Assembly (NCBI GenBank): GCA_964531645.1
Contig: CAZHEF010000001.1
Coordinates: forward strand, 88,054 to 152,053
Length of the DNA: 64,000 bases
Direction of reading: 5' to 3'
Origin: an uncultured Clostridia bacterium
GTDB taxonomy: Bacteria; Acidobacteriota; Aminicenantia; JBFLYD01; JBBIMS01
Below are positions 19,453-64,000 of the stretch, one piece after another (positions within the stretch are counted from its first letter, which is position 1; each line of letters starts with the position of its first letter). The notes under the pieces are model-generated. The model was given only the letters and a program-made list of their open reading frames with translations. It did not search any database and was not told where the DNA came from. Made by a program: the position numbers and the translations under genes.

Positions 19453-19605
19453 GTCGCCTCCTTTCATATAAAATTTCTATCAAATTTGATGCCAGATTGA
19501 AATCCTTATAAATAAATGCTTTACATCCAGCAAGGTGTCATTTTTTAAGGTCAACTGTCCTTTTATAGGGGGAAAAAGGGTAGAGGAATGAGAAAAGTTT
19601 TGAGA

Positions 19606-24538: not shown

Positions 24539-26983
<2,445 letters not shown>

Positions 26984-30501: not shown

Positions 30502-30684
30502 ATGTTCAGAACTTTAGGTCTTCCTGAAATCCTTATTATTCTTCTGATAGTCCTCCTCCTCTTTGGAGCTAAGAGACTCCCTGAGATTGGAAGAGGTCTT
30601 GGAGAGGGGATAAAGAGTTTCAAGAAAGCCCTTTCCGGTAAAGAAGAGAAAGAGGAAAAATCTGATCAGATATTGAAGAATTAA
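30502..30684 (+). CDS. tatA: Sec-independent protein translocase TatA/E (ATG at 30502, with a GGAGG RBS)
   Basis: '[43 protein letters not shown]', the classic TatA TM helix plus amphipathic helix. Confidence 0.85.
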
Positions 30685-31859
30685 TGGATCCTTTAATTTT
30701 AAAAAAGCTGGCAGAAGAACGGGAGATAGAAGAGGGTAAATTTAAATCCCATCTTGAGAAAATAGATAGATTCTTGTTAGACTTCAGAATTAATTCTGAA
30801 AATGTTTTAAATTCATTGAGAAGATTGAAGGAGGAGATTGAGTCGAAAAAAAAGAATGAATCCCAGTTTTTTCTCCCTCTTATCAATGGATTGGAGAAAA
30901 TTTATGAAAATCAGAAAATCTTTTCCGATCTTGTTCAGGAAACACTACACTCCATTCTTTCAATGGTTGATGCAAAGGAGAGGGAATGGGATGCGCTTGG
31001 ATCAAACCATGTTGGAATTCTTTTTGATTCCCTCAACTGGAAAATAGAAAATCTTAAAATTCAGAAGGAAAAAATTGAAGGTGCACTTCAGACATTTTTA
31101 AGCATAAAGAAAGAAATAGAGGAGTTCTCAACCCTTCTTAAGGCAAAAGAGAAGCCATCCCTTGAAGAGATAGAAAAATTTGAAAAAAGATTTGAAGATA
31201 TTGGATATAGATTTTTCGAGGCAGGTTTCAGGGGGTGGGAAGAGGATATAAAGGAGAGACAGAAAGTCTATATTGATTATTTTAAAGGGCTGGAAAATGT
31301 CCTTGATTTTGGTTGTGGCAGAGGGGGATTTTTAGAGCTGTTGAGGGAGAATAAAATTGATGGTTATGGGATCGAAATAAATGATGAAATGGTTAGAATT
31401 TGCAGGGAGAAGGGTCTCAAATGCATAAATGAGGATATACTCCTCCATCTCTCATCTTTGAATGACGAGGCTCTCGGGGGATTCTTCTCCTCCCAAGTTG
31501 TTGAGCACCTTGAACCTGTCCTTTTAAGAAAAATTTTCGATATTCTTTATTTCAAGCTTAAAAAAGGTTCTTTTGCTATCATAGAAACAGTTAACCCAAC
31601 TTCTCTTTACACCCTCTCAGATGTTTTCTGGAGAGATCCAACCCATAAAAATCCCGTCCATCCTGAAACTTTAAAATTCCTTATGGAGACATCTGGTTTC
31701 AGAGTTGATGAAATAAAGTATCTCTCCCCGACAAAAGAAGATTTGAAAGATATTCCTGAAGATACTGATGTCATGAGAAGAATCTCTTACAATTTTAAAC
31801 TTCTCGAGAAAATTATCTTTGGATTTCAGGATTACGCAATTATCGCAAGAAAACCATGA
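30684..31859 (+). CDS. Class I SAM-dependent methyltransferase with an N-terminal coiled-coil domain of about 190 aa and unknown function. ATG overlaps the tatA stop (TAATG).
   Basis: Motif I 'VLDFGCGRGGF', post-I acidic residue, 'FFSSQVVEHL'. The N-terminal half is heptad-rich. Confidence 0.6.
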   Translation: MDPLILKKLAEEREIEEGKFKSHLEKIDRFLLDFRINSENVLNSLRRLKEEIESKKKNESQFFLPLINGLEKIYENQKIFSDLVQETLHSILSMVDAKEREWDALGSNHVGILFDSLNWKIENLKIQKEKIEGALQTFLSIKKEIEEFSTLLKAKEKPSLEEIEKFEKRFEDIGYRFFEAGFRGWEEDIKERQKVYIDYFKGLENVLDFGCGRGGFLELLRENKIDGYGIEINDEMVRICREKGLKCINEDILLHLSSLNDEALGGFFSSQVVEHLEPVLLRKIFDILYFKLKKGSFAIIETVNPTSLYTLSDVFWRDPTHKNPVHPETLKFLMETSGFRVDEIKYLSPTKEDLKDIPEDTDVMRRISYNFKLLEKIIFGFQDYAIIARKP

Positions 31860-32761
31860 GCTGGATAGGATTTGATATTGGTGGAACTGCCATAAAATCA
31901 TGTATTCTTGATGAAGAAGAAAATATTAAAAAGGAAATAAGTGAACCGACCCCGAAGGATGCAAACTCTCTCAAAAATAAGATTTCTGAAATTTTCAAGA
32001 AATTCTCGTCCATTGAGAAGATATCTGGTACTGGAATAGGTATAGCAGGTTTCATAGATATGAAGGAATGGATATTGAGAAGATCTCCAAATATGAGATT
32101 TCTTGATGGTGTAAATCTTATTGATTTTTTCAGAGAGGCAATGGATGTCCCATTTACAGTAGATAACGATGCCAACATGGCAGCATGGGGTGAATTCAAA
32201 AAAGGAGTAGGTGTTGGAGTCAAAAATATGATCCATATTACCCTTGGGACAGGTATCGGCTCAGGTATAGTGATTAATGGAAATTTATTCCATGGCTCAT
32301 CAGGACTTGGAGCAGAGTTTGGTCACACAGTTGTTAATCCCGATGGCCTTCCATGTAATTGTGGAGGAAAAGGTTGTGTGGAGACAGAGGCTTCTGCCTC
32401 AAAAATAGTAAAGAATTATCTTGAACTTTCAGGTAAAGGGGATAACTTAACATCTGAGGATGTATATTATCTTGCAAAGAATGGAGATTCTTTTGCTGTA
32501 GAAGCTTTCAGGCTTGCGGGATACTATCTTGGAATAGGACTTTCCAATTTAATAAATCTACTAAATCCTGAGCTCATAGTCATCGGTGGTGGAGTATCAG
32601 AAGCAGGAGAATTTATTATGAAGCCTGTTATGGAAGAAATTAAAAAAAGGGCAATAAAATTTTCCTTTGATAAAGTGAAGATTGTTTATGCTCAACTTGG
32701 GAATAAAGCGGGAATGCTGGGAGCAGGGCTCTGGGGAATTGAGAATATATTGAAGAAATAA
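31856..32761 (+). CDS. ROK family sugar kinase (glucokinase-like). ATGA overlap with the upstream gene.
   Basis: 'IGFDIGGTAIK', zinc motif 'CNCGGKGCVE', 'GHTVV'. Confidence 0.75.
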   Translation: MSWIGFDIGGTAIKSCILDEEENIKKEISEPTPKDANSLKNKISEIFKKFSSIEKISGTGIGIAGFIDMKEWILRRSPNMRFLDGVNLIDFFREAMDVPFTVDNDANMAAWGEFKKGVGVGVKNMIHITLGTGIGSGIVINGNLFHGSSGLGAEFGHTVVNPDGLPCNCGGKGCVETEASASKIVKNYLELSGKGDNLTSEDVYYLAKNGDSFAVEAFRLAGYYLGIGLSNLINLLNPELIVIGGGVSEAGEFIMKPVMEEIKKRAIKFSFDKVKIVYAQLGNKAGMLGAGLWGIENILKK

Positions 32762-49305: not shown

Positions 49306-52300
49306 TTATTTCTTTGGATACGGAGGAACTGGAGGAAGTTTCTGCTCCTTTGTCTTCAACTCATCAAGAATCACCTCAATTGCCTTTTCAAGTTGTTGGT
49401 CTACACCCTCAAATTCCTTTGCAGGGTCATTGTCAACAAATATATCGGGTTCAACACCTTGTCCTTCTATTATCCATTTCCCTTCAAGTCCGAAAGTTGC
49501 AAATTCGGGTTTGTTCAAATATCCACCATCAGTAAGGGGTAAAGTTCCTCTAATACCAATAACTCCACCCCATGTTCTTTTACCTATCAATTTTCCGAGA
49601 TTATATTTTCTGAATCTATATGGGAATATATCTCCATCTGAGGCAGAGAATTCATCAATAAGACAGACCTTTGGACCCATTAAAAGGGCTGAAGGGTCAG
49701 GCTGAGGAATTGAGCCCCTTGCAATATCAACCATTGCAACTTCCCTTGCAAGTCTCTCTATTATCATTGGTGAAACATTTCCTCCTCCATTCCCTCTAAC
49801 ATCAATGATTAAAGCCTTCTTTCTAAGCTGGGGATAGAAGTGCTTTACAAACTCATTCAACCCTCTAACTCCCATATCAGGGATGTGGATATACCCAACT
49901 TTTCCATTTGTCGCTTTATCAACTTTTTCTATGTTCTTCTGAACCCAGTTGTAATAGTAGAGATTATTTTCATTCTCTATTGGAATTACAACGACATCCC
50001 TTGCTCCCGCTTCAGATGGCTTGCTATTCACTTTTATAGTAACTTGCTTTCCAGCTGTAGTAACGAGGGATTCATAAATATTCTCCATTTTATTTGTTAG
50101 ATTCCCATTTACAGCAATTATCCAATCGCCTTCTTTAACATTTATTCCAAGTTCAGTTAATGGAGACCTTAACGATTTATCCCAATTCTGTCCTTTCAAT
50201 ATTTTCTTTATTCGATAAAAACCTGTTTCCTTATCTTTTTCCAGCTGAGCTCCAAGCATTCCAATATTAACCCTTTTTACCTGAGGTAGATCTCCTCCTC
50301 CGACATATGTGTGTCCTGCGTTGAGCTCACCAATCATTTCTCCAATAACATATGTCAGGTCTGCCCTGTGATTTACAGCCTTTGCCAGTGACTCATACTG
50401 CTTTTTTACTTTTTCCCAGTTAACACCATGCATATTCGGGTCATAGAAAAAGTCTTTCATTTGCCTCCAGCACTCTTCAAATATCTGTGCCCATTCAGCC
50501 TTTCTATCAAGTTTCATTTCCATATTAGAAAGGTCGAGTTTTTCATCTATTTTTATTGGTGCGGTGGGAAGGTCTATTATTGCAAAGGTTCTCTCCTGGG
50601 AGACGAGCATTTTTTTGCCATCCTTAGAGATAACAAATGAATTTACACTTCCAAGTTCCTTCTCTTCTTGCTTTTTCAAATCGTAGAATTTTAAAACAGC
50701 CCTTTGGTCCCTGTCGCCCCTCTTCATGTAATAGAGCTTATCTCCCACAGATGATAGATTCAAGTAATTAGCAACTTCTATGGGCAATCCAACAATTCTA
50801 TCCTTAATTTCTTCAGGGTCAACCTTTATAGATTTTGGTTTTTCCGCTTCTTTTTTAGTCTCTTCTTTTTTTACATCCTGTTTTTCAGGAGTTGGACTCT
50901 TTTGCTTTTCTGAAATCTCCACCTCATCACTCTTTGGCTCAAAGGGGGACTTTTCTTCTACAGATAATGTGACAAGATAAATCCTTGACATGGAAAGATA
51001 GGCATGATTAAACTCAGTCCTGCTGTAAACAGGATTGAAATCTCTGTCTGAAACAAAGAATAGATATTTTCCATCAGAGCTGAAATGGGGAGATGTAGAG
51101 TTATACCAGCCATCAGTTACCTCATAGGTCTTTTTGTTGGTCAGGGAATAAAGATAGATCTTTGTCATTCCTTCCACTTCTGGTTTTGCATAAGCAATCC
51201 AGTTGCTATCAGGAGACCATGTGTAGGAACGGATCTCCCAGCTTGTCCCTTTTGCAACTTCCACAGCATCCTTTGAATCAATATCAACATAATTTAATCG
51301 GAAATTCCTGTCAGACCACATTATCTTTTTGCTATCAGGTGACCAAATAATATCATATTTGTATGTATCAGCATCCTTTGTTATCTTAATTGGTTCTTTT
51401 GAACCATCCTGGGGCATTATGTATATTTCATCCCTTCCAGTTCTATCTGAAATAAATGCTATCCATTTACCGTCAGGAGACCAATTGGGGTCTCTTTCAT
51501 GAATTCCTGATGAATTTGTCAAATTCCTTGTATTTCCATGTTTTGCAGGAACTGTGAAAATTTCCCCCCTCGCTCCAAAAAGTGCTCTCTTTCCATCTGG
51601 GGAAATGTCAAAATAATTTATTTTGTCAGAGACTTTTACGATTTCCTCCCTTCCGGTGATTTGGTCATCAGCAATGTAGATTGTAATTTTTGAAGCTTTT
51701 TCAGTTTTAAGGTCAAATTTATAAATGAACCCTCCATTTTCAAAAACTATTGTATCAAGCCCAATCGATGGAAATTTTATATCGTAATCTTCAAAATTCG
51801 TAAGCTTTCTAATCTTCTTCGTTGGAATTTCGTAGACATAAAGATTCATCCTTGCATTTTCATCTCTGTCAGATAGAAAGTAAATCTTGTCTCCGTGCCA
51901 CATGGGTATTATATCAAGAGCAGGATTGTTAGTTATATTCTCAATCTTTTTTGTCTGAAAATCGTAAATCCACACATCATCAGCCATCCCACCCCTGTAT
52001 CTCTTCCAGGTTCTGAATTCCCGAAAGATTCTATTGTAAGCGAGCTTTTTTCCATCTGGAGAGAATGAACAGAAACCGCCCCTTGGAAAGGGAAGTTGCT
52101 CTGGAAGTCCACCATTTTTTGAAACAGTATAAAGTTGCCCGTTGAAATCGTTCCACTCCCTCATTCTTGAGCGAAAAATTATTTTCTCTCCATCAGGGGT
52201 CCATCCCATAACAATATTGTTTGGTCCCATTCTATCGGAGATATCGTCTCTGCTTAAAACTGGTGTGTAGGTCAATCTTTTTGGAATTCCACCCTCTGAA

Positions 52301-52572
52301 GGAACTAAATAAACCTCGCGATTCCCATCATACTCTCCTGTAAATGCAATGTATTTTCCATCAGGAGAGAATCTTGCAAAACATTCATATCCAGAATGAG
52401 ATGTAAGTTTTCTTGCAATTCCGCCACTCACGGGAACAATGTATAAATCTCCAGCGTAGGTGAAAACTATCTGGTCTTTGTAAATCGCTGGAAACCTCAA
52501 AACCCTTGCCTCTTCAAGGGCAAAGGAAAATGAAATTAAAAAGAAAAATAATAAAAAATAAAACTTCTTCAT
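49306..52572 (-). CDS. Tricorn protease homolog. Has a signal peptide, tandem TolB-like beta-propellers, PDZ, and a C-terminal S41-like peptidase domain. Preferred start is the ATG at 52572.
   Basis: About 1090 aa with repeated 'SPDGK' propeller blades in the N-terminal two thirds and a C-terminal tail-specific-protease-like domain ('IIDVRGNGGG', 'VCLIDEFSASDGDIF'). Confidence 0.7.
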   Translation of the reverse strand: MKKFYFLLFFFLISFSFALEEARVLRFPAIYKDQIVFTYAGDLYIVPVSGGIARKLTSHSGYECFARFSPDGKYIAFTGEYDGNREVYLVPSEGGIPKRLTYTPVLSRDDISDRMGPNNIVMGWTPDGEKIIFRSRMREWNDFNGQLYTVSKNGGLPEQLPFPRGGFCSFSPDGKKLAYNRIFREFRTWKRYRGGMADDVWIYDFQTKKIENITNNPALDIIPMWHGDKIYFLSDRDENARMNLYVYEIPTKKIRKLTNFEDYDIKFPSIGLDTIVFENGGFIYKFDLKTEKASKITIYIADDQITGREEIVKVSDKINYFDISPDGKRALFGARGEIFTVPAKHGNTRNLTNSSGIHERDPNWSPDGKWIAFISDRTGRDEIYIMPQDGSKEPIKITKDADTYKYDIIWSPDSKKIMWSDRNFRLNYVDIDSKDAVEVAKGTSWEIRSYTWSPDSNWIAYAKPEVEGMTKIYLYSLTNKKTYEVTDGWYNSTSPHFSSDGKYLFFVSDRDFNPVYSRTEFNHAYLSMSRIYLVTLSVEEKSPFEPKSDEVEISEKQKSPTPEKQDVKKEETKKEAEKPKSIKVDPEEIKDRIVGLPIEVANYLNLSSVGDKLYYMKRGDRDQRAVLKFYDLKKQEEKELGSVNSFVISKDGKKMLVSQERTFAIIDLPTAPIKIDEKLDLSNMEMKLDRKAEWAQIFEECWRQMKDFFYDPNMHGVNWEKVKKQYESLAKAVNHRADLTYVIGEMIGELNAGHTYVGGGDLPQVKRVNIGMLGAQLEKDKETGFYRIKKILKGQNWDKSLRSPLTELGINVKEGDWIIAVNGNLTNKMENIYESLVTTAGKQVTIKVNSKPSEAGARDVVVIPIENENNLYYYNWVQKNIEKVDKATNGKVGYIHIPDMGVRGLNEFVKHFYPQLRKKALIIDVRGNGGGNVSPMIIERLAREVAMVDIARGSIPQPDPSALLMGPKVCLIDEFSASDGDIFPYRFRKYNLGKLIGKRTWGGVIGIRGTLPLTDGGYLNKPEFATFGLEGKWIIEGQGVEPDIFVDNDPAKEFEGVDQQLEKAIEVILDELKTKEQKLPPVPPYPKK

Positions 52573-52616
52573 TTTTCCCTCCATACCCTTATTACGAAAT
52601 TTTTATTACAATTGTT

Positions 52617-53624
52617 CTATGTGCTCTCCTCCATCAAAATCTTCATAATCTTTTTCGCATATTCAGCACTTTCAGAATCGACACCCTTAATTTTTATCTG
52701 AGAGGGAGACCTTACGCCCAAACCAAGTTCCACAGCCCTTGCAATTTGCTCCTGTTCAAAAATCTTCTTCTCCATAATATTCTTGTTGCTTCCAATTTCT
52801 TTTAGAATTGCCACCCCAACTGCATCAATTGCAATTCTGTCTGTTCCTGCAAGAAAGACCTTTGCATTTCTTCTCTCACCCTCCATGGGTCCACCATCAA
52901 CAAAAACTTCAATCCCATCAACAACAATTAAAGATGGTTTGTATGCATAGTTTATCTCAGCTATCATTTTCCTCATGTTGGGAGAGGAGTGAAGTTCTCT
53001 CATGAATGGGTGACCTTTTCTTGGAACTATTCCAACAGAATTTTTCAAAGATACTGTGAAAATTCCTCCAAACTGATGGGTTTTTATACAACATGTGGAA
53101 ACAATACATTCAGCTTCCAGGATTGGCTTTGCCACAAGAAATCCATCCTTCCAGTGGGAATCAGGTGGAAAAATCTTTTCATATCCAACCTCTCCAAGCT
53201 CATCAAAATTGATTACCTCTGCATCAAACTCCTTGGCAAGTTCATAGATATTTTTCTTTCTCAAAACCTGCTCTGTTGGTTCTGGTCCTGATCTGTCTCC
53301 AATCTTGATTTTCTTTCCTCCCATATCCTTTATCAAAGCCATTAGTTCTCTCAGAGTATCGTTATGGGTTGAACCTGGTGTAGGATCAGAAGTGTTAAAA
53401 TTAGGTTTGATGAGGACATCTTTATTCTTGAAGGGATTTATTCCGAAAACCTCAACAGATTTTCTAACTCCAAGCTTTCTATCCTGGCATTTTATAAGGA
53501 CCACCTCTGAAAAATTTTCTTCTTGACCGTTCCCCTCAAAATGGAAATTTTTCACAAAACCAATCCCAATCAATCCTGCACCTCCTGCAATCAAAAATTC
53601 TCTTCTGCTTATTTTCCTTTCCAT
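52617..53624 (-). CDS. DUF362-like protein with a twin-arginine (Tat) signal peptide and a Cys-rich segment
   Basis: 'SRREFLIAGGAGLIGIGF' Tat motif; 'VSTCCIKTHQFGG'. DUF362 family assignment is by recollection only. Confidence 0.4.
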   Translation of the reverse strand: MERKISRREFLIAGGAGLIGIGFVKNFHFEGNGQEENFSEVVLIKCQDRKLGVRKSVEVFGINPFKNKDVLIKPNFNTSDPTPGSTHNDTLRELMALIKDMGGKKIKIGDRSGPEPTEQVLRKKNIYELAKEFDAEVINFDELGEVGYEKIFPPDSHWKDGFLVAKPILEAECIVSTCCIKTHQFGGIFTVSLKNSVGIVPRKGHPFMRELHSSPNMRKMIAEINYAYKPSLIVVDGIEVFVDGGPMEGERRNAKVFLAGTDRIAIDAVGVAILKEIGSNKNIMEKKIFEQEQIARAVELGLGVRSPSQIKIKGVDSESAEYAKKIMKILMEEST

Positions 53625-53875: not shown

Positions 53876-53904
53876 TTGACTCAAACGAATAATAAATTTA
53901 TAAA
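53876..53904 (+). promoter_or_regulatory. Candidate sigma70 promoter of mutS (TTGACT, 17 nt, TATAAA). The TTGACT is what the ORF track took as a TTG start.
   Basis: 'ttgactcaaacgaataataaatttataaattc' read directly. The canonical MutS N-terminus 'MEELTPLMKQY' starts at the ATG at 53912. Confidence 0.45.
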
Positions 53905-53911
53905 TTCTTTG

Positions 53912-56530
53912 ATGGAAGAATTAACTCCTTTAATGAAACAGTACAATGAAATAAAAAAAGACTTCCCTGACTCTATTCTTTTGTTCAGGCTTGGTGATTT
54001 TTACGAGATGTTTGGTGAGGATGCAATTAAAGCATCAAAAATCCTTAACATTGCTCTAACGACAAGGGATAGGGGTAAGGAAAATCCAGTTCCCATGTGC
54101 GGAGTCCCTTATCACTCTGTGGATATTTATATTTCAAGACTCCTAAAAGCAGGCTTTAAGGTTGCTATTTGCGAGCAGATGGAGGAGCCTGGACTTTCAA
54201 GGGGTCCTGTTAGAAGGGAGGTTACCAAAATTCTTACTCCCGGAACTGCCATAGAGATTGAAGATGTTCCATCGGAATTTTTGAAAATTTCCTCCATTAT
54301 AAAGGGAGGAAATAGAATTGCCTTCTCTTATATTGACCTCCAAACATGGGAAGCAAAATGTTCAGAACTTGACCTTGATAGCAAAATAAAACTGGAGGAT
54401 TTGATTGCTCAGATAAACCCTAAAGAAATAATAGTGCCTAAATCCCAAGCGGAGGAAATTTCAAAGACTCTTTATCTGGAAGATGGATTCTCTCTAACAG
54501 AGCTTGAAGATACCTACTTTGATCCCTTCAAAGGAGAGATAAATCTCAAAAACCATCTCGGTGTTACTTCTCTGTATGGAATAGGTCTTTCAGGGAAACC
54601 ACTTTTAATATCAAACCTATCAGCTCTTTTGCAATACTTAAAAGAGCTAAGAAGGGATGATTTAAGTTTTCTCAGGAGAATTTCCCTCCATTCTTATACT
54701 GATTTCATGATTCTTGACTCTGTTTGTATAAGAAATCTGGAGTTAATAAAAAATATAAGGGATGGAAGCAAAGAGGGTTCTCTGTACGGAATTTTAGACA
54801 TTACGAGAACTTCCTTAGGAAGCAGAATGTTGAAGGAATGGATACTTCATCCTTTACTTTTAAAAGAAGAGATAGAAAAAAGACTTGATGCAGTTGAGGA
54901 ATTTCTATCAAATCATTCAAAAAGGAGAGAACTCGGGAAGATTTTTGATGGAATTTCAGACCTTGAAAGACTCCTTTCTAAACTTGTTCTTAATGTTGCC
55001 AATCCACGGGATATAGTGGCACTGAAAAACTCAATTGCACCTTTCCCATCCATAAAGAACCTTCTGGCTGATTTTAAATCAGAACTTGTAAAAGAAAAGA
55101 TTTTTAGCTGGGATTCCCTTGAAGATGTTAAAGAAAAAATTGAAAGAGCAATTGTTGAAGACCCACCATCAGTTATTACAGAGGGTGGAATAATAAAGGA
55201 GGGATTTGATCCATCCATAGATGAATTGAGGAAACTCTCCAGGGAAGGGAAAGAATTCATTGCAAGGCTGGAGAAAAAGGAGAGGGAGAGAACAGGTATA
55301 AACTCCCTGAAAATCAAATACAACAAAGTCTTTGGTTACTCCATTGAAGTTACAAAGCCCAATCTTCATCTCGTCCCCCAAGACTATATAAGAAAGCAAA
55401 CCCTTGTAAATGCTGAAAGATTTATAACAATGGAACTAAAAGAATGGGAAGAAAAGATTCTTTCTGCAGAAGAAAGAAGTAAAGAGCTTGAATATGAATT
55501 GTTCTTGAAAATCAGGGAAGAAATTGCAAGGGAGAGGGAGAGAATACAGAGGACAGCAAAGATTATTGCAGAACTGGATTGTCTTTCTACCCTTGCTGAG
55601 GTTGCTTACCTCAGGAAATACTCAAAGCCAAAAATCCATGAGGGAGAAAAAATTTTAATAATAGAAGGCAGGCATCCTGTAATAGAAGCTCTTAGAAAAG
55701 AGGAACCCTTCATTCCCAATGATGCTGAGATAGATTGCGATGAGAATCAGATACTTATAATTACAGGACCAAATATGGGTGGGAAATCAACATATTTAAG
55801 ACAGATTGCCCTTATAGTAATAATGGCTCAGATAGGTTCTTTTGTCCCTGCAAAATCTGCTGAAATAGGAATAGTTGATAGAATATTCACAAGAATTGGA
55901 GCAACAGATTATCTTATAGCCGGGCAATCCACATTTCTCGTAGAAATGCACGAATCCTCTTCAATCCTTCACAATGCAACAAGAAAAAGTCTCGTTCTTC
56001 TTGATGAGATAGGAAGAGGGACTTCAACCTTTGATGGAATATCCATAGCATGGGCTGTGATTGAATATGTTCATGAGAAACTTTTCTGCAGAACTCTTTT
56101 TGCAACCCATTACCACGAGCTGACAGAGCTTACCCAGACTTTAAAGAGGGCAAAGAATTTCCATGTTTCCGTTAAAGAAACAAAGGATGAAGTTATATTT
56201 TTGAGAAAGATAAAAGAGGGGCCATCAGACAGAAGCTTTGGGATCCAGGTGGCAAAACTTGCAGGAATTCCAAGGGAAGTAATTTTTCGTGCAAAAGACA
56301 TACTCCTTGATCTCGAAAGAAAGGAAAGAGAAGAAATAAGCAAAAAAAGGTCTACAAGATTCAGAAGGGAAACTGATCCCAATCAGATTCCCCTTTTTCC
56401 AGAGCTTAGACAGGAGGAAAAAATCAAGAAGCTGAAAGAAAAACTTAGTTCAATTGATATAAATAAAATAACCCCCCTTCAGGCACTCCTAATTTTGAAT
56501 GAGCTCAAAGATGAACTGGAGAGGGAATAG
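53912..56530 (+). CDS. mutS: DNA mismatch repair protein MutS (start reassigned to the ATG at 53912)
   Basis: N-terminal 'LTPLMKQYNEIK', Walker A 'GPNMGGKST', 'DEIGRGTST', C-terminal 'PLQALLILNELK'. Confidence 0.9.
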   Translation: MEELTPLMKQYNEIKKDFPDSILLFRLGDFYEMFGEDAIKASKILNIALTTRDRGKENPVPMCGVPYHSVDIYISRLLKAGFKVAICEQMEEPGLSRGPVRREVTKILTPGTAIEIEDVPSEFLKISSIIKGGNRIAFSYIDLQTWEAKCSELDLDSKIKLEDLIAQINPKEIIVPKSQAEEISKTLYLEDGFSLTELEDTYFDPFKGEINLKNHLGVTSLYGIGLSGKPLLISNLSALLQYLKELRRDDLSFLRRISLHSYTDFMILDSVCIRNLELIKNIRDGSKEGSLYGILDITRTSLGSRMLKEWILHPLLLKEEIEKRLDAVEEFLSNHSKRRELGKIFDGISDLERLLSKLVLNVANPRDIVALKNSIAPFPSIKNLLADFKSELVKEKIFSWDSLEDVKEKIERAIVEDPPSVITEGGIIKEGFDPSIDELRKLSREGKEFIARLEKKERERTGINSLKIKYNKVFGYSIEVTKPNLHLVPQDYIRKQTLVNAERFITMELKEWEEKILSAEERSKELEYELFLKIREEIARERERIQRTAKIIAELDCLSTLAEVAYLRKYSKPKIHEGEKILIIEGRHPVIEALRKEEPFIPNDAEIDCDENQILIITGPNMGGKSTYLRQIALIVIMAQIGSFVPAKSAEIGIVDRIFTRIGATDYLIAGQSTFLVEMHESSSILHNATRKSLVLLDEIGRGTSTFDGISIAWAVIEYVHEKLFCRTLFATHYHELTELTQTLKRAKNFHVSVKETKDEVIFLRKIKEGPSDRSFGIQVAKLAGIPREVIFRAKDILLDLERKEREEISKKRSTRFRRETDPNQIPLFPELRQEEKIKKLKEKLSSIDINKITPLQALLILNELKDELERE

Positions 56531-56732
56531 TCATTTTAGGACTTATTATTAGTTTTATGAAATTACCTTTTGTTTGAATAAATTCATCCAGCAAAGATTA
56601 GAAAATACCATTCACAGAAGCAGATCCGATGAGGAAATATCAAATTTAATTGATTTTGCTTTGGATATCGAATTTTCTATGATAAAATAAAAATTAATTG
56701 TTAATTTTAGAAATGATTTTTTTAGTTCTTGT

Positions 56733-59700
56733 ATGATTTATACCTTGACCTGCACAGGAAAAAGAATTTTCAAGTTAATTAAGCAGACAATCATTTTCCT
56801 TTTATGTTTGATTCCTCTTCTTCAAGCTCAGCATAATGTTCGATTTCAGCACCTCTCAATTGAACATGGGCTTTCCCAGTATTCAGTGCATTGCATTATT
56901 CAGGACAAAAAAGGGTTTATGTGGTTTGGGACAGAAACAGGCTTGAACAGATATGATGGCTATGAATTTACTATCTACAATCCTGAACTTGGAAACCCTA
57001 ACAGCCTCAGCAACAATTGGATAAACGCATTATATGAAGATCGTTTTGGTTATTTATGGATTGGCACCGACAATGGTCTGAATAAGTTTGATAGAGAGAC
57101 TGAAAGATTCACAAGATATTTTCACAGAGAGGATGACCCATATAGCCTGAGTAACAACAGAATTTTTTCCATCTACGAAGATAAATCTGGAAATTTATGG
57201 ATTGGAACGGAAGACGGTTTAAATAGATTTGACTGGCAAACCGGGAGATTCTACCATTACAAAAATAATCCTGAAGATCCCCAAAGCCTGAGTCACAATG
57301 CTGTCAGGGCTATATGCGAAGATGAAAAAGGAAATCTCTGGATTGGAACATTTGGTGGAGGACTAAATAGATACGACCCGACTACAAACCAATTCACTCA
57401 TTACAAGAGTAATTCCAAAAATCCTGATAGCTTGAGCGATGATCAAATCCTATCCATCGCAATAGACTCCTCCGGAAACCTATGGATGGGAACTAGAGGC
57501 GGTGGGTTGAACAAATTTGACCCTTTAACAGGCAAATTTAAAAATTATAAAAGCAATCCCAAAGACCCTAACAGTCTCAGCGATAACTGGATCAATTGTC
57601 TTTATGTTGATGAAAATGGGATCCTCTGGATAGGCACAAACAGTGGTGGTCTTAATATGTTTAACCCGAAAACCGAGAGATTTGTGGTTTATAAAAATGA
57701 CCCCGCAGATCGGTTCTCCTTAAGCGGCAATAGAATTTTAACAGTCTATAAAGACCGATCTGAAATATTATGGGTTGGATCATATGAAGGCGGGTTAAGT
57801 AAATACGCTATGAAAAAAGACTATTTCTTGCTATTTGAACCTAACCCAAATGACCCTCTCAGCCTGAGCTATTCTGCAGTCCGTTCATTCTATGAGACAG
57901 AAGATGGTATTCTGTGGGTAGGAACAGATGGTGGCGGGATAACAGTTTTTAATAGAAAGGAAGGGAAGACCATTTATTATAAATACAACCCAAATGATCC
58001 TTTCAGCTTGAGCAGTGATAGAGTCTTCTCTATAATAAGAGATGAAACAGGAACTTTCTGGATTGGAACTTATGGTGGAGGACTCAACCGGTTTGAACCT
58101 AAAACCGGAAGATTTGTTCATTATCGACATAATCCAGGAAATCCTTTCAGTATCAGCGATGACAGAATCAGAACCATCTACCTTAGTAACTCAGGAGTTT
58201 TATGGATAGGAACGGATGGAGGAGGACTCAATAAATTTGATAGAAAAACCAATAAATTCATCCGATATATTCATAATCCATATAAAAAGAACAGTCTAAG
58301 TAGTAATCGAGTATGGGCAATAAGAGAAGACAATTCCGGAATATTATGGATAGGAACTTTCGGAGGTGGTCTTAACAAATTCGATCCAGAAAAGGAAGAA
58401 TTTTCCCATTTTAAGCATGATCCTGAAAATCCAAATAGTTTAAGTAATAACTATATTATGACACTTCATATGGATTCAAATGGTTATCTCTGGATTGGGA
58501 CAAGCGCTGGCGGTCTAAACAAATTCGACCCTAAAAATGAACTTTTCACCACTTACACTCGTAAAAAAGGCCTTCCAGATGATGTAATATATGGTATTCT
58601 TGAAGACAAAGAAGGAAATCTCTGGATAAGTTCAAATAAGGGAATAATAAAATTCAATCCTCACAGAAAAGAGATAAAAAGCTATGATATGAACGATGGA
58701 CTTCAATCCAATGAGTTCAATGGCGGATCATATTTTAAGAGTAAGACTGGCTGGATGTATTTTGGAGGGCCTAAAGGTTTCAATGCATTTTTACCTGAAA
58801 ATGTCAAAGAAAGCTCCTACATTCCATCCATAGTGATAACAGATTTCAAGATCTTCGGCAAATCTGTGCCAACAGGAAGAACTTCTGCCGGAAGAGTAAT
58901 TCTTGAAAAATCAATCACCGAAACTGATTACATAAAACTATCACATAAAGACCGTGTAATCTCTTTTTCTTTTACTGCCCTTGACTATACTGCTCCTGAA
59001 AACAATCAATATGCTTATATGATGAAAGGAATTGATAATGACTGGAACTATGTTGGAAAAAGTCGCTATGCCAACTACAATAACATTCCACCAGGCAAAT
59101 ATGTTTTCAGGGTAAAGGGAACAAACAGCGATGGGGTCTGGAATGAAGAGGGCATATTATTGAAGATAGAGATCGCTCCACCTTTCTGGAAAACATGGTG
59201 GTTTTATCTGACATCTGGTTTATTTGTTTTATTTACTTTATTTGGAATATATCTATTAAGAATTAGCCAGCTCCATAGAGCCAAGGAAAAATTAGAAGCA
59301 TTGGTTAATGAAAAAACCAAACAATTAGCAGAAGCCAATAAAAAATTGGAATTACTCTCAACTACTGATGAATTAACGGGCATACCTAACTACCGAAAAT
59401 TCAAGGAATTTTTCCAGCGTGAATGGCTAAGAGCTATTCGAAATAAAACCCCAATAGCTGTGATTTTAATTGACATAGATAATTTCAAGCTCTACAACGA
59501 TACTTATGGACATCAAGCTGGAGATATTTGTTTGAGAAGAATTGCTGAGGCGATATATGAAAATGTCAAACGACCGGGTGACATGGCCGCGCGTTATGGC
59601 GGAGAAGAATTTATCATTGTCCTATCGGAAACGGATTCCTTTGGAGCTTTCACCGTGGCAGAAAGAATAAGAAAACAAGTTGAATCACTGAAAATTTCCC

Positions 59701-59876
59701 ATGAAAAGTCGGCTGTCTCTGATGTCGTTACCATTAGCCTTGGCTATGCCACGGCAATTCCGAATGGAGAGATTGTGGCAGATTGGATGATTAACCTTGC
59801 TGATCAGGCATTATATGAAGCCAAAAAAAATGGTAAGAATCAAACTTGCGAAGCGATTAGTTCTATTTTAAAGTGA
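56733..59876 (+). CDS. Sensor diguanylate cyclase. Has a signal peptide, a periplasmic two-component-regulator-propeller (Reg_prop) double beta-propeller plus Y_Y_Y domain, one TM, a coiled coil, and a cytoplasmic GGDEF domain.
   Basis: At least 14 repeats of 'GxLWIGTxxGGLNxFD', TM 'WWFYLTSGLFVLFTLFGIYLL', and a GGDEF active site 'RYGGEEF' with upstream 'DIDNFKLYNDTYGHQAGD'. Confidence 0.8.
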   Translation: MIYTLTCTGKRIFKLIKQTIIFLLCLIPLLQAQHNVRFQHLSIEHGLSQYSVHCIIQDKKGFMWFGTETGLNRYDGYEFTIYNPELGNPNSLSNNWINALYEDRFGYLWIGTDNGLNKFDRETERFTRYFHREDDPYSLSNNRIFSIYEDKSGNLWIGTEDGLNRFDWQTGRFYHYKNNPEDPQSLSHNAVRAICEDEKGNLWIGTFGGGLNRYDPTTNQFTHYKSNSKNPDSLSDDQILSIAIDSSGNLWMGTRGGGLNKFDPLTGKFKNYKSNPKDPNSLSDNWINCLYVDENGILWIGTNSGGLNMFNPKTERFVVYKNDPADRFSLSGNRILTVYKDRSEILWVGSYEGGLSKYAMKKDYFLLFEPNPNDPLSLSYSAVRSFYETEDGILWVGTDGGGITVFNRKEGKTIYYKYNPNDPFSLSSDRVFSIIRDETGTFWIGTYGGGLNRFEPKTGRFVHYRHNPGNPFSISDDRIRTIYLSNSGVLWIGTDGGGLNKFDRKTNKFIRYIHNPYKKNSLSSNRVWAIREDNSGILWIGTFGGGLNKFDPEKEEFSHFKHDPENPNSLSNNYIMTLHMDSNGYLWIGTSAGGLNKFDPKNELFTTYTRKKGLPDDVIYGILEDKEGNLWISSNKGIIKFNPHRKEIKSYDMNDGLQSNEFNGGSYFKSKTGWMYFGGPKGFNAFLPENVKESSYIPSIVITDFKIFGKSVPTGRTSAGRVILEKSITETDYIKLSHKDRVISFSFTALDYTAPENNQYAYMMKGIDNDWNYVGKSRYANYNNIPPGKYVFRVKGTNSDGVWNEEGILLKIEIAPPFWKTWWFYLTSGLFVLFTLFGIYLLRISQLHRAKEKLEALVNEKTKQLAEANKKLELLSTTDELTGIPNYRKFKEFFQREWLRAIRNKTPIAVILIDIDNFKLYNDTYGHQAGDICLRRIAEAIYENVKRPGDMAARYGGEEFIIVLSETDSFGAFTVAERIRKQVESLKISHEKSAVSDVVTISLGYATAIPNGEIVADWMINLADQALYEAKKNGKNQTCEAISSILK

Positions 59877-59923
59877 TGATGAAACAATATTCCTGGATTG
59901 AAATTAATATAGAGTGAGGATAT

Positions 59924-60619
59924 ATGAATAAGAATCAAAAAGTTTTGAATTTAGTGTTGATAGTTAGGGACGATTCTGACAGAGCCTTTTATGGATCTCT
60001 TCTGGCTACTTATCAAGACATCTCCCTTGAATCATACACCTCTCTTCAGCAATTCTGGGAAAGTCTTGAAGACAGACTCTATTCAGGAGTCTTAATCGAC
60101 CTTCATACTCTTATCATCTCGTCAACCTCAGAAAAAGAATTTTATTATTCAATCCGCAAAGGCTTTCCTGTGATCAGGCTAAACAGAAGTGCTGACAAAA
60201 AAGAGCTGGATTTTTTTATTGAAGAGCAAAAGGCAAGAGCCCTAAAAGGTAAAGAACTTCTGGATTATTTCATATATAATCTGTGCGCCAGCAGAAGTGC
60301 CAGGAAAATCAGAAGACATGCAAGAAAGAATTTATATTTCAATGTTAATTTGCATTTTACTGATGGACATTCTATAAAAACGAACCTTTTGGACCTCTCC
60401 CAAGGGGGTTGTTTTGTTCTGACCAACGAAGAGCCTCCCGCAGATAAAATTGTCTATCTTATTATCAATGAATTGACAGACAAAACACCCATCCCTGCTG
60501 AAGTAAAATGGAATGTCCCGTGGGGGAAGACCATAAAACATCTGCCTGGGCTTGGGCTGGCATTTAAAAAAATGTTAACCAGTCAGATAGAAGAAATTAA
60601 GAAAGCACTCGAGTCTTAA
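59924..60619 (+). CDS. PilZ-domain c-di-GMP receptor with an N-terminal receiver-like domain
   Basis: C-terminal 'RRHARK' (RxxxR) followed by 'DLSQGG' (DxSxxG), the two PilZ c-di-GMP-binding motifs. The N-terminal half has a REC-like alternation ('VLIVRDDSD', 'GVLIDL'). Confidence 0.6.
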   Translation: MNKNQKVLNLVLIVRDDSDRAFYGSLLATYQDISLESYTSLQQFWESLEDRLYSGVLIDLHTLIISSTSEKEFYYSIRKGFPVIRLNRSADKKELDFFIEEQKARALKGKELLDYFIYNLCASRSARKIRRHARKNLYFNVNLHFTDGHSIKTNLLDLSQGGCFVLTNEEPPADKIVYLIINELTDKTPIPAEVKWNVPWGKTIKHLPGLGLAFKKMLTSQIEEIKKALES

Positions 60620-60775
60620 ACATAATCATATAGTCTTTAATTAGTGTAGGATTTATAATTGAAAGTGAAAGAGGGGTTGAGAGTTAAAGAAAGGTTTTTA
60701 TAAAAAGATATTTTGATTTCTGGTATTGATTTTGAATGAATTCTTCTTTGATTATTTAATAGTTCAGAAATTCAA

Positions 60776-60825
60776 TTGACAATAAATTTTGAAATAAATT
60801 AAAATTATATGTAGTTATATGTAGT
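60776..60825 (+). promoter_or_regulatory. Candidate promoter (TTGACA, 17 nt, TTAAAA) followed by a perfect tandem 10-mer (tatatgtagt x2) just upstream of the decaheme cytochrome RBS
   Basis: 'ttgacaataaattttgaaataaattaaaattatatgtagttatatgtagtaatgaaggagg' read directly. Confidence 0.35.
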
Positions 60826-60842
60826 AATGAAGGAGGTTATGG

Positions 60843-61733
60843 ATGAGTTTGCAGAAAGTTTCTTTATGTATTGCCTCTGCCTCCGCCATTCTCCTCTGGT
60901 TCTTATTCTCAAACCCTCTAAAAGTATCAGCTCAGGGAGAATATGCAGGTATTGAACAATGCGCCATGTGTCATGAAGATATTGTAAAGTCCTTTAAAGC
61001 CTCAATCCACGGCAAAAAAGGTTTTGAACTCCGCTCTGATAAAGCCTGTGAAACCTGCCACGGTCCCAGCGCTGCCCATGTCGAAGCAGGAGGAGATAAG
61101 ACAAAAATCCAGATTATAAAAGCTCTTTCTGCTGAAGAGAAATCAGATATGTGTCTCCAGTGTCATGAAAGAGGAACACAGATGTTTTGGAATGGAGGTG
61201 CTCATGAGTTAAGGGGTTTAAGCTGTCTAACCTGTCATTCTGTCCATCATCCAAAGGATGAAAAAGCCCAGTTAATTTCAAAAGAATCCGAACTTTGCTT
61301 TGATTGCCACAAGAAAAACAGATCTCAATTTTTGAGAGCATCCCATCATCCCATCAGAGAAGGAAAAATGAACTGTTCTGATTGTCATAATCCCCATGGA
61401 ACCCAGACAGAAAAACTGATCTCTGCCAATTCGATTACCGAAAAGTGTTATGAATGCCACACTGAAAAAAGAGGTCCTTTTCTCTGGGAACATGTTCCAG
61501 TTAGAGAAGATTGTTCAAACTGCCACGAACCTCATGGAACAAACCATATCAAAATGCTCAATGCAAAAATGCCATTCCTCTGCCAGAGATGTCATTCAGA
61601 CCAAAGACATCCTGGAACCATTTACGACCAGACCCAGATTGTCTCCAACAGGTTATTTAACAGATCTTGTACCAACTGTCACTCCACAATCCATGGATCC
61701 AATCATCCATCAGGAAAAACATTCTTGAGATAA
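60843..61733 (+). CDS. Periplasmic decaheme c-type cytochrome, MtrA/DmsE/MtoA/PioA family
   Basis: Signal peptide plus exactly ten CxxCH motifs (CAMCH, CETCH, CLQCH, CLTCH, CFDCH, CSDCH, CYECH, CSNCH, CQRCH, CTNCH) in 296 aa, the size and heme count of MtrA/MtoA. AAGGAGG RBS. Confidence 0.8.
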   Translation: MSLQKVSLCIASASAILLWFLFSNPLKVSAQGEYAGIEQCAMCHEDIVKSFKASIHGKKGFELRSDKACETCHGPSAAHVEAGGDKTKIQIIKALSAEEKSDMCLQCHERGTQMFWNGGAHELRGLSCLTCHSVHHPKDEKAQLISKESELCFDCHKKNRSQFLRASHHPIREGKMNCSDCHNPHGTQTEKLISANSITEKCYECHTEKRGPFLWEHVPVREDCSNCHEPHGTNHIKMLNAKMPFLCQRCHSDQRHPGTIYDQTQIVSNRLFNRSCTNCHSTIHGSNHPSGKTFLR

Positions 61734-61745
61734 GGAGGTGTGAAA

Positions 61746-63926
61746 ATGAAAAAAGCTTTTTTAATTTTGTTAACATTTGTATTTTTCATTGGATTCTCCG
61801 GTGCAGGTCTTTTTGCTGAAGAGAAAGAAGAAACAAAGGTGAATGGCAAAATAGTCACAGGTGCTCAAGATATTCAGGTTGATGCGAAATCTTCAAAATT
61901 CTTTGAATACAGAGATGTTCCAAGGGGGTTCACATTTGGAGTCTTTAATGTCAATATTGAAAATGGGAATAGATATTTTAACTTCAACTTTACCAATTTG
62001 AAGCAGAGGGATGGAAGATACAACCTCAATTTTGGAGAGTATGGGAAGTTAGATTTAAATTTCCTATGGGACAAAACTCCTCACAGATTCAGCTTTGACG
62101 GGAAGACTCTCTATGTAGGTAGAGAGGAAGGCGGGGTCTACTATTACACCCTTTCTGACCAGATTCAACTCGATGCCCAGAATGCTCCCACCATTACAGA
62201 TACAAGAAAACTTATCTCCAGTTTTCTAACAGGAGCTCAGGAAAAAGGTCTTGAGCTTATAAGAAATAAAGGAGTTCTTGACATTAAATTTACTCCTTCA
62301 GTTCCATTAACATTAAGAATTAATGCCCAAAGAGAGACAAGAAATGGAACAAGACCTTTCGGAGCATCATTTGGATTCAATCATGTTGTTGAAGTTCCAG
62401 AGCCAATTGATTATAAGACATCCAATGTTAATTTCAATGCAGAGTATTCGAAAAAATGGGGAACAGTAGTTGCTGGATTTAATTATTCAAATTTTGATAA
62501 TAACCTTCAGACACTTATATGGGATAACCCCTTCAGATTAACTGACAACCCTAAAGGCTCTTATATTAACGGCGATTCGAGTGCCTTCGGAAGAATGGCT
62601 CTTTCCCCAGACAACTCTGCAAATCAATTCTATTTTAAAGGCTCTATCAAACCTTTGAAGAACGCAAGGATAAACGTCTCGATCTCCTTTGGAACTTTCA
62701 CTCAGGATGAGAAACTCCTTCCTTATACAATTAATACAGTTCTTACCTCCTACGATTCAGGCGCTTTAAACCCTCCGAGGGATACTGCAAAAGCAGAAGC
62801 TGATATTGCTTCAATCGATTTAAGCCTTAACACTAAAATAATTGAAAATCTTTGTTTTAATGCTGGCTACAGTTCTTACGATTTCAAAAATAAAACTGAA
62901 GAATTGCATCTCCCGGGATATACAAGATTTGATCAGTCATGGGTCTCAGCAGTATCCGTTGAACCCTATAGCTTCAAGAGAGAAAAATACTATGGAGAGC
63001 TTACTTATAATTTCCTGAAAAAAGCCTTTCTTAAACTTGGCCTTACTTCCTCAAGCATTGAAAGAGAGCTTGGGCATGAGGATGAAGGAAAGAGTGATGA
63101 GACAGCCTATCACGCCTCTATTGACTCCAATCTTACAGACTGGCTACTTTTTAGAATTTCTTATCTGAGCTCTTCGAGAGAATGGTCTCTTGATGATGTA
63201 AAGAAAATTTATCCAACCTTCAATTTTAAGAGATACCATGAAGCTACAAGGGACAGAGAGGGACTGAATCTTCTTGTTTCATTTTCTCCTATTGCAAATC
63301 TTGACCTTTCTGCTTCCTACATGCAAGGTAAAGATGATTATACAAAATCTGAATACGGTTTGAGGAATCAAGATTTCACAAATTATTCCTTTGACCTTTC
63401 TTATATCTTGAAAAAAGGGAGTTCATTGTATGTATTTTACTCCAATGAAGTATATAAAGGAGTCCAGAGGTCAAGGCAGTCTGGTGCAACCTATTCAATA
63501 GATGTTCGAGATGACTGGTCTGCTGAGCTGAAGGATACAATTGATTCTTACGGAGCTGGAATCAACGCAGTTCTCAAAAAGAATAAACTCAATTTTGATC
63601 TTTCCTACATTTACTCAAAAGCTGACGGAACATCCTTTCTTGACTCCCCTCCCGGAAGAACTGCTGGCCCTGACCTTGCAGTTAATTTCAAAAAGAAGAT
63701 AGATACAACAACCCTTCAGAGCATAAGAGCAAAATTGCTATGGAAGTTGCAACCTCGCGTGACCATGGCAATAGGTTACTGGTATGAGCAATATGGCCTT
63801 GAGGATATTACTCGTAATGACTTAAAAGTGGATATGCTTCTGACTGGAATGGCAATGTATCTTGGCGCCCTTGAACCCGGGTACAAGTATCATACTGGTT
63901 TTGTAAAATTAATATATTCTTTCTGA
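61746..63926 (+). CDS. MtrB/PioB/MtoB family decaheme-associated outer-membrane beta-barrel porin. ATG at 61746; the track GTG is at 61740.
   Basis: About 727 aa, signal peptide 'MKKAFLILLTFVFFIGFSGAGLFA', beta-rich composition, C-terminal '...KLIYSF' with terminal Phe. Immediately downstream of, and co-oriented with, the decaheme cytochrome. No N-terminal CxxC, so MtoB/PioB-like. Confidence 0.6.
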   Translation: MKKAFLILLTFVFFIGFSGAGLFAEEKEETKVNGKIVTGAQDIQVDAKSSKFFEYRDVPRGFTFGVFNVNIENGNRYFNFNFTNLKQRDGRYNLNFGEYGKLDLNFLWDKTPHRFSFDGKTLYVGREEGGVYYYTLSDQIQLDAQNAPTITDTRKLISSFLTGAQEKGLELIRNKGVLDIKFTPSVPLTLRINAQRETRNGTRPFGASFGFNHVVEVPEPIDYKTSNVNFNAEYSKKWGTVVAGFNYSNFDNNLQTLIWDNPFRLTDNPKGSYINGDSSAFGRMALSPDNSANQFYFKGSIKPLKNARINVSISFGTFTQDEKLLPYTINTVLTSYDSGALNPPRDTAKAEADIASIDLSLNTKIIENLCFNAGYSSYDFKNKTEELHLPGYTRFDQSWVSAVSVEPYSFKREKYYGELTYNFLKKAFLKLGLTSSSIERELGHEDEGKSDETAYHASIDSNLTDWLLFRISYLSSSREWSLDDVKKIYPTFNFKRYHEATRDREGLNLLVSFSPIANLDLSASYMQGKDDYTKSEYGLRNQDFTNYSFDLSYILKKGSSLYVFYSNEVYKGVQRSRQSGATYSIDVRDDWSAELKDTIDSYGAGINAVLKKNKLNFDLSYIYSKADGTSFLDSPPGRTAGPDLAVNFKKKIDTTTLQSIRAKLLWKLQPRVTMAIGYWYEQYGLEDITRNDLKVDMLLTGMAMYLGALEPGYKYHTGFVKLIYSF

Positions 63927-64000
63927 GATTTTCGGGATAAGATTTTGGGCAAGGGGTAAACTTCCTGCCCCTTTTATTTTGCAATTTAGTCCCTAACTCT

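Follow-up and report, generated by a model that had tools for sequence, protein, structure and literature searches.

The window analysed here, the whole 64,000-nt stretch (64 kb) of contig CAZHEF010000001.1 from an uncultured Aminicenantes-type bacterium, carries near its 3' end a gene for a sensor diguanylate cyclase, a gene for a small PilZ protein with a receiver-like (REC-like) N-terminal domain (N-domain), and mtrAB, the genes of a decaheme cytochrome and its porin. An initial annotation of this DNA had proposed that the first two genes, sender and receiver of cyclic di-GMP (c-di-GMP), are wired to the electron conduit encoded by the other two. This wiring is not borne out: close relatives carry histidine kinase and sigma-54 activator genes in the slot 5' of mtrAB, an orthologous cyclase-PilZ pair is found without mtrAB, and mtrAB has a promoter region of its own that is conserved with the relatives. 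We consider it moderately probable that a portable c-di-GMP sensor/receptor pair displaced an ancestral two-component cassette, that pair and conduit are separate units, and that the PilZ adaptor acts on a partner encoded elsewhere. A dedicated link from the PilZ protein to the Mtr conduit is then probably lacking; such a link is possible but not supported by the comparisons, and it would rest on gene position in a single species.

The comparison that carries this reading concerns the slot between mutS and mtrAB in the six closest relatives (the genomes L012-L014 and the read-archive assemblies L075-L077), in which MtrB is 82-88% (P0013-P0018, L012-L014), MtrA ~86% and MutS 82-85% identical to the window proteins. 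In all six, the gene order is mutS, histidine kinase, sigma-54 activator, mtrA, mtrB and a reverse-strand gene for a MoaA-like radical SAM protein, and in none does a cyclase-PilZ pair stand next to mtrAB. The kinase (488-493 aa) has a periplasmic Mcp40H-20-type sensor in which a CxxCH haem motif is present, and behind this sensor come HAMP, HisKA and HATPase_c domains; the activator (461-470 aa) is a response regulator composed of REC, sigma-54-activator and HTH_8 domains. When pairwise distances to four of the relatives were compared, mutS and mtrA of the window were nearest to L075; because this nearest relative and the other five all carry the two-component cassette, parsimony makes the cassette ancestral and the cyclase-PilZ pair derived. 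Homology between the window and its relatives stops shortly after the mutS stop codon and resumes ~150 nt before mtrA, so that the lost segment was made up of the kinase promoter, both regulatory genes and the motif that lay ahead of the mtrA promoter.

The intergenic regions of the relatives suggest how the lost cassette may have worked. The kinase gene is preceded by a canonical sigma-54 promoter (CTGGCAC-N5-TTGCT), mtrA by a variant (CTGGCAT-N5-TTGA) at a distance of 56-112 nt. All six relatives have the motif GTGAAATAACCCA ahead of the mtrA promoter, 61-64 nt away from it; only L012-L014 have it also before the kinase promoter, at that spacing. Its placement makes it a candidate activator site, through which the activator would drive both its own operon and mtrAB; ancestral control of mtrAB by the two-component system is what we infer from this pattern. 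With its haem-motif sensor, the kinase/activator pair looks like an autoregulated redox-sensing two-component system driving the conduit, of which we found no description in the literature searched.

In the window, GTGAAATAACCCA is absent upstream of the mtrA promoter. The sigma-54-like core persists as a remnant, TGGTATTGATTTTGAA, which differs from the TGGCAT-N5-TTGA of the relatives by a C-to-T change in the -24 element, and it is followed by a strong sigma-70-like site whose -35/-10-like elements have counterparts at the aligned position in L012-L014. The spacer between the PilZ gene and mtrA lacks a predicted terminator (none was found by the terminator scan between 60620 and 60843), yet it holds a sigma-70-like site and a sigma-54-like core that are common to relatives without the pair. 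Because no terminator is predicted, read-through from the PilZ gene into mtrA is possible. Behind the sigma-70-like site, TATATGTAGT is perfectly duplicated; this duplication was seen in the window only, and in the alignment with L012-L014 it shows as an insertion of 14 nt.

The cyclase and the PilZ protein are well supported as a cognate c-di-GMP sender and receiver. This is the part of the initial annotation (a ligand sensor acting through c-di-GMP on PilZ) that holds: motifs are intact on both sides, the 47-nt gap between the genes contains no terminator, and the pair is kept in another lineage (L002-L010, L078, L079). There, the PilZ protein is 62% identical to that of the window and the cyclase gene lies directly 5' of the PilZ gene (in L002 it encodes 1059 aa, 61% identical over 1025 aa), across a gap of 55-85 nt vs 47 nt in the window; because the two genes stay adjacent at this divergence, we regard them as an orthologous unit. 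A more distant PilZ family member (P0168, 29% identical, in L080) is also encoded directly downstream of a GGDEF gene, which again bears out the pairing, and a 36%-identical member (L011) has response-regulator and Hpt genes around it but no cyclase. The contigs bearing the orthologous pair lack mtrAB. Its flanks are instead lysine-biosynthesis genes upstream and, downstream, small reverse-strand open reading frames (ORFs) followed by a PAS-PAS-HD-GYP gene. This gene lies ~1.3 kb downstream of the pair (L002:6246-8033, L009:5782-7569, L007:12013-13799, where three PAS domains are counted), and its product, which carries HHERWDGSGYP, is a predicted c-di-GMP phosphodiesterase; the locus of that lineage would bring together maker, breaker and receiver of c-di-GMP.

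The pair is patchily distributed. A word-indexed search of 5.8 billion proteins returned three 90%-identity clusters of the PilZ protein, a profile search of the word-indexed database 5 PilZ-family proteins and a metagenome scan two loci, both of one lineage; the identical protein occurs on three contigs of one species. Rarity of this kind would be expected if the pair were inactive or decaying cargo of a rearrangement, without present function, but this is very improbable: both ORFs are intact, all catalytic and binding motifs are preserved, and the 61-62% identity to the orthologous pair is kept over the full length. The GC content of the pair (0.375) also matches that of its flanks (0.368). 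Signs of a mobile-element origin were searched for and rejected, with no meaningful flanking repeats around the pair and no deviation in GC content.

We next surveyed mtrAB loci more widely, using a profile of Aminicenantes-type porins that retrieved 63 species-level genome loci from other species, with flanks of up to 10 kb. The adjacency of mtrA and mtrB was kept in nearly all 63. No PilZ or Reg_prop-GGDEF gene was found near mtrAB in any of these loci (phmmer searches with the window cyclase and PilZ protein), and no member of the REC-like-PilZ family (family hidden Markov model). The four-gene synteny is thus missing from related genomes (0/6 close relatives, 0/63 genome loci of other species); the initial annotation had named, as the outcome that would speak against it, a synteny seen on this contig alone while relatives carry the GGDEF-PilZ pair in another place, and this is the pattern found. 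A co-oriented kinase and sigma-54 activator directly 5' of mtrAB were found in 17/65 loci, close relatives included, and their hosts span Acidobacteriota, Bacteroidota, Ignavibacteria, Latescibacterota, Gemmatimonadota and Deltaproteobacteria, including a Geobacter. The kinase/activator genes lie 0.5-4 kb upstream of mtrA in L032, L033, L038, L039, L042, L044, L046, L050, L056, L058, L060 and L074, and a small receiver-only gene often stands between activator and mtrA. When the two ORFs preceding mtrA were tallied by Pfam family, Response_reg (16), Sigma54_activat (12) and HisKA/HATPase_c (9) came out on top, and neither PilZ nor GGDEF was among the 25 commonest families.

GGDEF genes near mtrAB were limited to one distant clade among the 63 loci. 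In its representative L021 (L021:5264-8879), genes for an extracytoplasmic function (ECF) sigma factor, a zf-HC2/TonB_C anti-sigma factor and an unknown protein are divergent from mtrAB, and a PAS-GGDEF gene lies beyond them; this regulator set, of another kind, occupies the same flank of mtrAB. The arrangement recurs in L023, L024, L026, L049 and L030, and is rearranged in L025. As independent support for a c-di-GMP link to the conduit it was given little weight, with three reverse-strand genes intervening and all loci belonging to one clade.

Both proteins of the pair have the features that the initial annotation had read from the sequence. The cyclase shows 11 Reg_prop stretches (E 8e-78, Pfam), a Y_Y_Y match (E 5e-19) and a GGDEF domain at residues 877-1037 (E 4e-50) that is well above thresholds (PF00990, 170 bits, cutoff 23.8; TIGR00254, 171 bits, cutoff 37.4), and neither EAL nor HD-GYP is matched in Pfam or NCBIfam. 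Its translation presents an N-terminal hydrophobic segment, the sensor, a transmembrane segment after Y_Y_Y, a coiled coil and then GGDEF; a 141-144-nt periodicity in the gene reflects the propeller blades. The active site RYGGEEF is intact, with RPGD (an RxxD I-site) five residues upstream, and the guanine-specifying residues (FKLYNDTYGHQAGD, with the N...D pair) can be read from the translation; by comparison with PleD and Hypr GGDEF enzymes, we take this pair to be canonical rather than of the Hypr type. The sequence therefore predicts an enzyme that makes c-di-GMP. The sensor resembles that of the Bacteroides hybrid two-component Reg_prop/Y_Y_Y proteins (periplasmic double beta-propeller with Y_Y_Y, transmembrane segment, cytoplasmic output domain), and differs in its output, which is GGDEF vs kinase/receiver/AraC in those systems. 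A glycan or surface polymer is suggested as the ligand by analogy only; glycan binding by such sensors is known for the Bacteroides proteins alone. Reg_prop-GGDEF proteins have been listed for Xanthomonas and Lysobacter (PMC6637768, PMC6182147).

In the PilZ protein, the PilZ domain spans residues 130-229 (PF07238, 41.1 bits, cutoff 22.5). The RxxxR and DxSxxG motifs are intact (R130xxxR134, D157xS159xxG162) and invariant in 10/10 close homologues, and R130, R134, S159 and G162 are at least 90% conserved across 33 family members, from which c-di-GMP binding is predicted. The N-domain was examined in an AlphaFold2 (AF2) model, in which residues 1-130 form an alternating strand-helix domain (pLDDT, the predicted local distance difference test, ~80-90); the model was used for this domain only. 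Foldseek matches of the N-domain in the PDB are almost all receiver domains (probability 0.98-1.0, template modelling score ~0.5-0.6 on the target), which are weak by E-value (~1e-2, best 7e-3). Neither Response_reg nor any other Pfam family matched the N-domain even at E up to 10. D59, after strand 3, is conserved, and the conserved T/K positions of REC are not recognisable; in its modelled fold the N-domain is receiver-like, without being assignable to the REC family. Its own signature (window 59924-60298, residues 1-~125) consists of a nearly invariant D59, P82 and a C-terminal W-x3-W...LPGxG (proteins P0132-P0279).

This two-domain architecture of ~230 aa defines an uncharacterised family of REC-like-PilZ adaptors, commonly paired with a cyclase, that the analysis brings to view: an exhaustive profile search gave 490 family representatives in total, at least 310 of them cluster representatives (50% identity) of the two-domain type at E up to 1e-10, and a subgroup of ~350 aa carries a duplicated N-domain. 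Like YcgR, MotI/YpfA, PlzD and Xanthomonas PilZ, the window protein is small and cytoplasmic, has a C-terminal PilZ domain with RxxxR and DxSxxG behind an N-terminal partner-interaction domain, and lacks an enzymatic or DNA-binding domain; it differs from these adaptors in an N-domain that is receiver-like in fold and matches no Pfam family, vs their PilZN/YcgR-N type. The family has no DNA-binding or AAA+ domain, its isoelectric point (pI) ranges from 4.7 to 9.6, and the nearest solved sequences in a PDB profile search are MotI/YpfA and Xanthomonas PilZ, not MrkH. The variable pI and these nearest solved proteins therefore favour a protein-binding adaptor over a DNA-binding activator.

Within the reading of two separate units, unit 1 (56733-60619) would be a self-contained c-di-GMP signalling pair. 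A ligand would bind the periplasmic double-propeller/Y_Y_Y sensor and activate the cytoplasmic GGDEF domain, which would make c-di-GMP under feedback limitation through the RxxD I-site; c-di-GMP would then bind the PilZ domain of the co-transcribed 231-aa adaptor, whose receiver-like N-domain would engage a protein partner encoded elsewhere. Unit 2 (60721-63973), a porin-cytochrome conduit of the mtrAB type, would have a promoter region and a terminator to itself. Ancestrally, the haem-sensing kinase and the sigma-54 enhancer-binding response regulator would have activated their own operon and mtrAB through the shared upstream motif. In the window lineage, cassette and motif would have been replaced by the cyclase-PilZ pair, and transcription of mtrAB would now probably start at the sigma-70-like promoter, perhaps supplemented by transcripts running on from the cyclase and PilZ genes.

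Several observations weigh against this reading. The pair occupies the former regulator slot in the same orientation and without a predicted terminator before mtrA, as a functional replacement would look; a separate Aminicenantes clade (L021) has a 317-aa PAS-GGDEF protein encoded ~3 kb from mtrAB; the effect of c-di-GMP on mtrCAB in Shewanella makes a link between PilZ and conduit biologically plausible (PMC7533324); the PilZ domain is poorly modelled (pLDDT <50, AF2); and the genome was covered over 64 kb only. A rival view is that control of mtrAB passed from the lost kinase and activator to the cyclase-PilZ pair. The c-di-GMP-bound PilZ protein would then raise or lower mtrAB transcription, either in the manner of MrkH at the sigma-70-type promoter or via a partner transcription factor, and a periplasmic or surface cue would switch the conduit on along with the sessile state. 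Such an in-situ cassette swap fits a slot that holds regulators in many lineages (the two-component genes of the 17/65 loci, ECF sigma/anti-sigma in another clade), and mtrAB, being under purifying selection, must be expressed somehow; precedents exist in MrkH, a PilZ-type activator (PMC3161979, PMC5055493), and in the c-di-GMP-dependent rise of Mtr expression in Shewanella (PMC7533324). However, the arrangement is seen in a single species without replication, and the orthologous pair works with no mtrAB nearby. MrkH of Klebsiella likewise is small and joins an extra N-domain to PilZ, and its gene stands next to a surface-structure operon, close to c-di-GMP turnover genes (PMC3161979), but the window protein has no detectable sequence similarity to it (PDB profile search), a receiver-like N-domain and no helix-turn-helix or AAA+ domain; its family is not uniformly basic. 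MrkH-like DNA binding by the window protein was considered unlikely on these grounds. The neighbourhood is, moreover, prone to rearrangement: the window, L013 and L075 have different genes 5' of mutS, which weakens any inference from adjacency. Since the juxtaposition occurs in one species only, it is not separable from chance. We therefore think it unlikely that the pair functionally replaced the former regulator, and it is doubtful that a redox-sensing two-component system was naturally exchanged, in situ, for c-di-GMP as a dedicated control of MtrAB by a protein-based, non-riboswitch route.

The coupling could also be spatial or post-translational, the c-di-GMP-loaded adaptor acting on envelope assembly, on the localisation of MtrAB or on an adhesion or matrix system; gene adjacency would then reflect the co-expression of surface attachment and electron transfer. 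Most stand-alone PilZ adaptors act by protein-protein contact, as the likeness to MotI/YpfA and Xanthomonas PilZ would suggest here, the periplasmic sensor of the cyclase fits the sensing of a surface or polymer, the possible read-through would co-express all four genes, and deletion of a PilZ gene in Geobacter alters biofilm conductivity (PMC8683041). Nevertheless, the PilZ protein is cytoplasmic whereas MtrA is periplasmic and MtrB sits in the outer membrane, so no direct contact is expected, and the synteny is not conserved. Nor do the annotated ORFs of the 64-kb window include adhesion, pilus, flagellum, exopolysaccharide or polysaccharide synthase genes; beyond the block they are housekeeping genes (gyrA, gyrB, clpB, pyruvate phosphate dikinase and mutS). 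Coupling of this kind is quite improbable, less likely than regulator replacement.

The conduit itself is an ordinary one. The cytochrome has ten CxxCH motifs and matches the DmsE-family decaheme model (TIGR03508, 277 bits, cutoff 192); the porin matches PF11854 (MtrB_PioB, 299.6 bits, cutoff 23) over residues 48-728 and falls marginally under the cutoff of TIGR03509 (237.5 vs 240.05 bits), which bears out the identity of the third and fourth genes. Public gene calls start mtrB at ATG 61746, giving 726 aa. The nearest porin homologues and genome loci are named Candidatus Aminicenantes (Acidobacteriota). The ratio of nonsynonymous to synonymous substitution (dN/dS) against the relatives is 0.03-0.06 for mtrA and 0.05-0.07 for mtrB, equal to that of mutS: mtrAB has been under strong purifying selection since the swap. 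Like MtoAB, PioAB and MtrAB modules, the locus has a periplasmic decaheme gene followed immediately by an MtrB/PioB porin gene. It differs in having no adjacent MtrC/OmcA-type gene and in a host that is an uncultured Aminicenantes-type bacterium. No outer cytochrome of the MtrC/OmcA type lies upstream in the window, which ends 74 nt past the porin gene, just after its terminator; the locus does not amount to a complete MtrCAB-type metal-reducing system, for want of an adjacent outer decaheme cytochrome.

The coordinates of these features (Table 1) agree with the block as first described, four + strand genes, the first two 47 nt apart and the PilZ gene 223 nt from mtrA, to which a gap of 6 nt between mtrA and mtrB is added.

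Table 1. Features of the block and its surroundings (window positions unless a locus is given)
Feature	Position	Strand	Size and basis
mutS, conserved left anchor of the variable slot	53876..56530	+	MutS_I-V domains in public gene call
Sensor diguanylate cyclase gene	56733..59876	+	1047 aa; ORF list, Pfam/NCBIfam
REC-like-PilZ gene	59924..60619	+	231 aa; Pfam PilZ match
Lineage-specific part of PilZ-mtrA spacer	60620..60689	+	no counterpart in L012-L014 (alignment)
Sigma-54-like promoter core remnant, TGGTATTGATTTTGAA	60721..60736	+	conserved block in alignment, motif scans
Sigma-70-like promoter, TTGACA-18-TAAAAT	60776..60805	+	11/12 matches, consensus match only; 38 nt before mtrA start
Perfect 10-nt tandem duplication, TATATGTAGT x2	60806..60825	+	between -10-like element and mtrA ribosome-binding site
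mtrA (DmsE/MtrA-family decaheme cytochrome)	60843..61733	+	296 aa; TIGR03508
mtrB (MtrB/PioB porin)	61740..63926	+	728 aa; PF11854
Terminator-like hairpin and T-run closing the mtrAB unit	63951..63973	+	terminator scan
Kinase and activator genes in relatives	L012:5951-9001, L013:5963-9012, L014:5974-9021, L075:6015-8993, L077:134-3117

The four proteins are ordinary members of known families, and their arrangement is a one-species juxtaposition. The initial annotation appears right in holding it undescribed for Mtr loci, as we found no paper on a cyclase-PilZ pair at an mtr locus in the literature searched. As a general idea, cyclic-dinucleotide control of extracellular electron transfer genes has been published before, for Shewanella (PMC7533324) and Geobacter (review, PMC8683041): mtrCAB of Shewanella oneidensis is expressed more strongly when c-di-GMP is raised, through a mechanism that is not known (PMC7533324), and in both genera GGDEF-derived second messengers influence the expression of cytochrome and electron transfer genes (PMC7533324, PMC8683041). 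The known routes in Geobacter are GEMM-I riboswitches, whereas no riboswitch (c-di-GMP/cGAMP, GEMM) was matched in Rfam at the gathering threshold over the window. A riboswitch in the spacers was rejected also under relaxed settings, Rfam at E up to 10 over 56400-61000 yielding noise only.

Were mtrAB controlled by the pair, this would fill in, at the level of a protein, the link from c-di-GMP to Mtr-type conduits whose effect is seen physiologically, without a mechanism, in Shewanella. As they stand, the comparisons show that regulators beside mtrAB are exchangeable cassettes. They predict a widespread default upstream of mtrAB, in which a haem-sensor kinase is joined by a sigma-54 activator whose binding motif can be recognised, and they warn that a gene adjacency seen once, in a metagenome-assembled genome, is a poor guide to function. 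Three results may be of use beyond this locus: the widespread placing of kinase and sigma-54 activator before mtrAB, together with the duplicated motif upstream; the exchange of regulator cassettes; and the REC-like-PilZ family.

A few further observations concern the surroundings. Neither a sigma-54 activator nor an HD-GYP gene was found within the 64-kb window, and ORF 14095-15105, the sole match in the window for a displaced two-component kinase, was rejected as an unrelated HATPase protein. The genes 5' of mutS are a Tricorn-like protease and DUF362 in the window (49306-53624) vs an M28 peptidase and NMO in L075 (L075:1-3231); in L013 (L013:1-1948) they are homologues of the window genes at 30684-32761. 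Finally, the TTGA variant of the sigma-54 promoter recurs at a third intergenic site in these loci and so seems to be a real type of promoter in the lineage. Copies of TGGCAY-N5-TTGA lie at 19480-19494 (-) and 26023-26037 (+) in the window, and at L012:13350-13364, L014:13527-13541 and L075:13349-13363. The extra copies of the relatives precede a ComGF-like gene cluster with a second sigma-54 activator in it, and the window copy at 19480-19494 is just upstream of the reverse-strand ORF 18790-19467.

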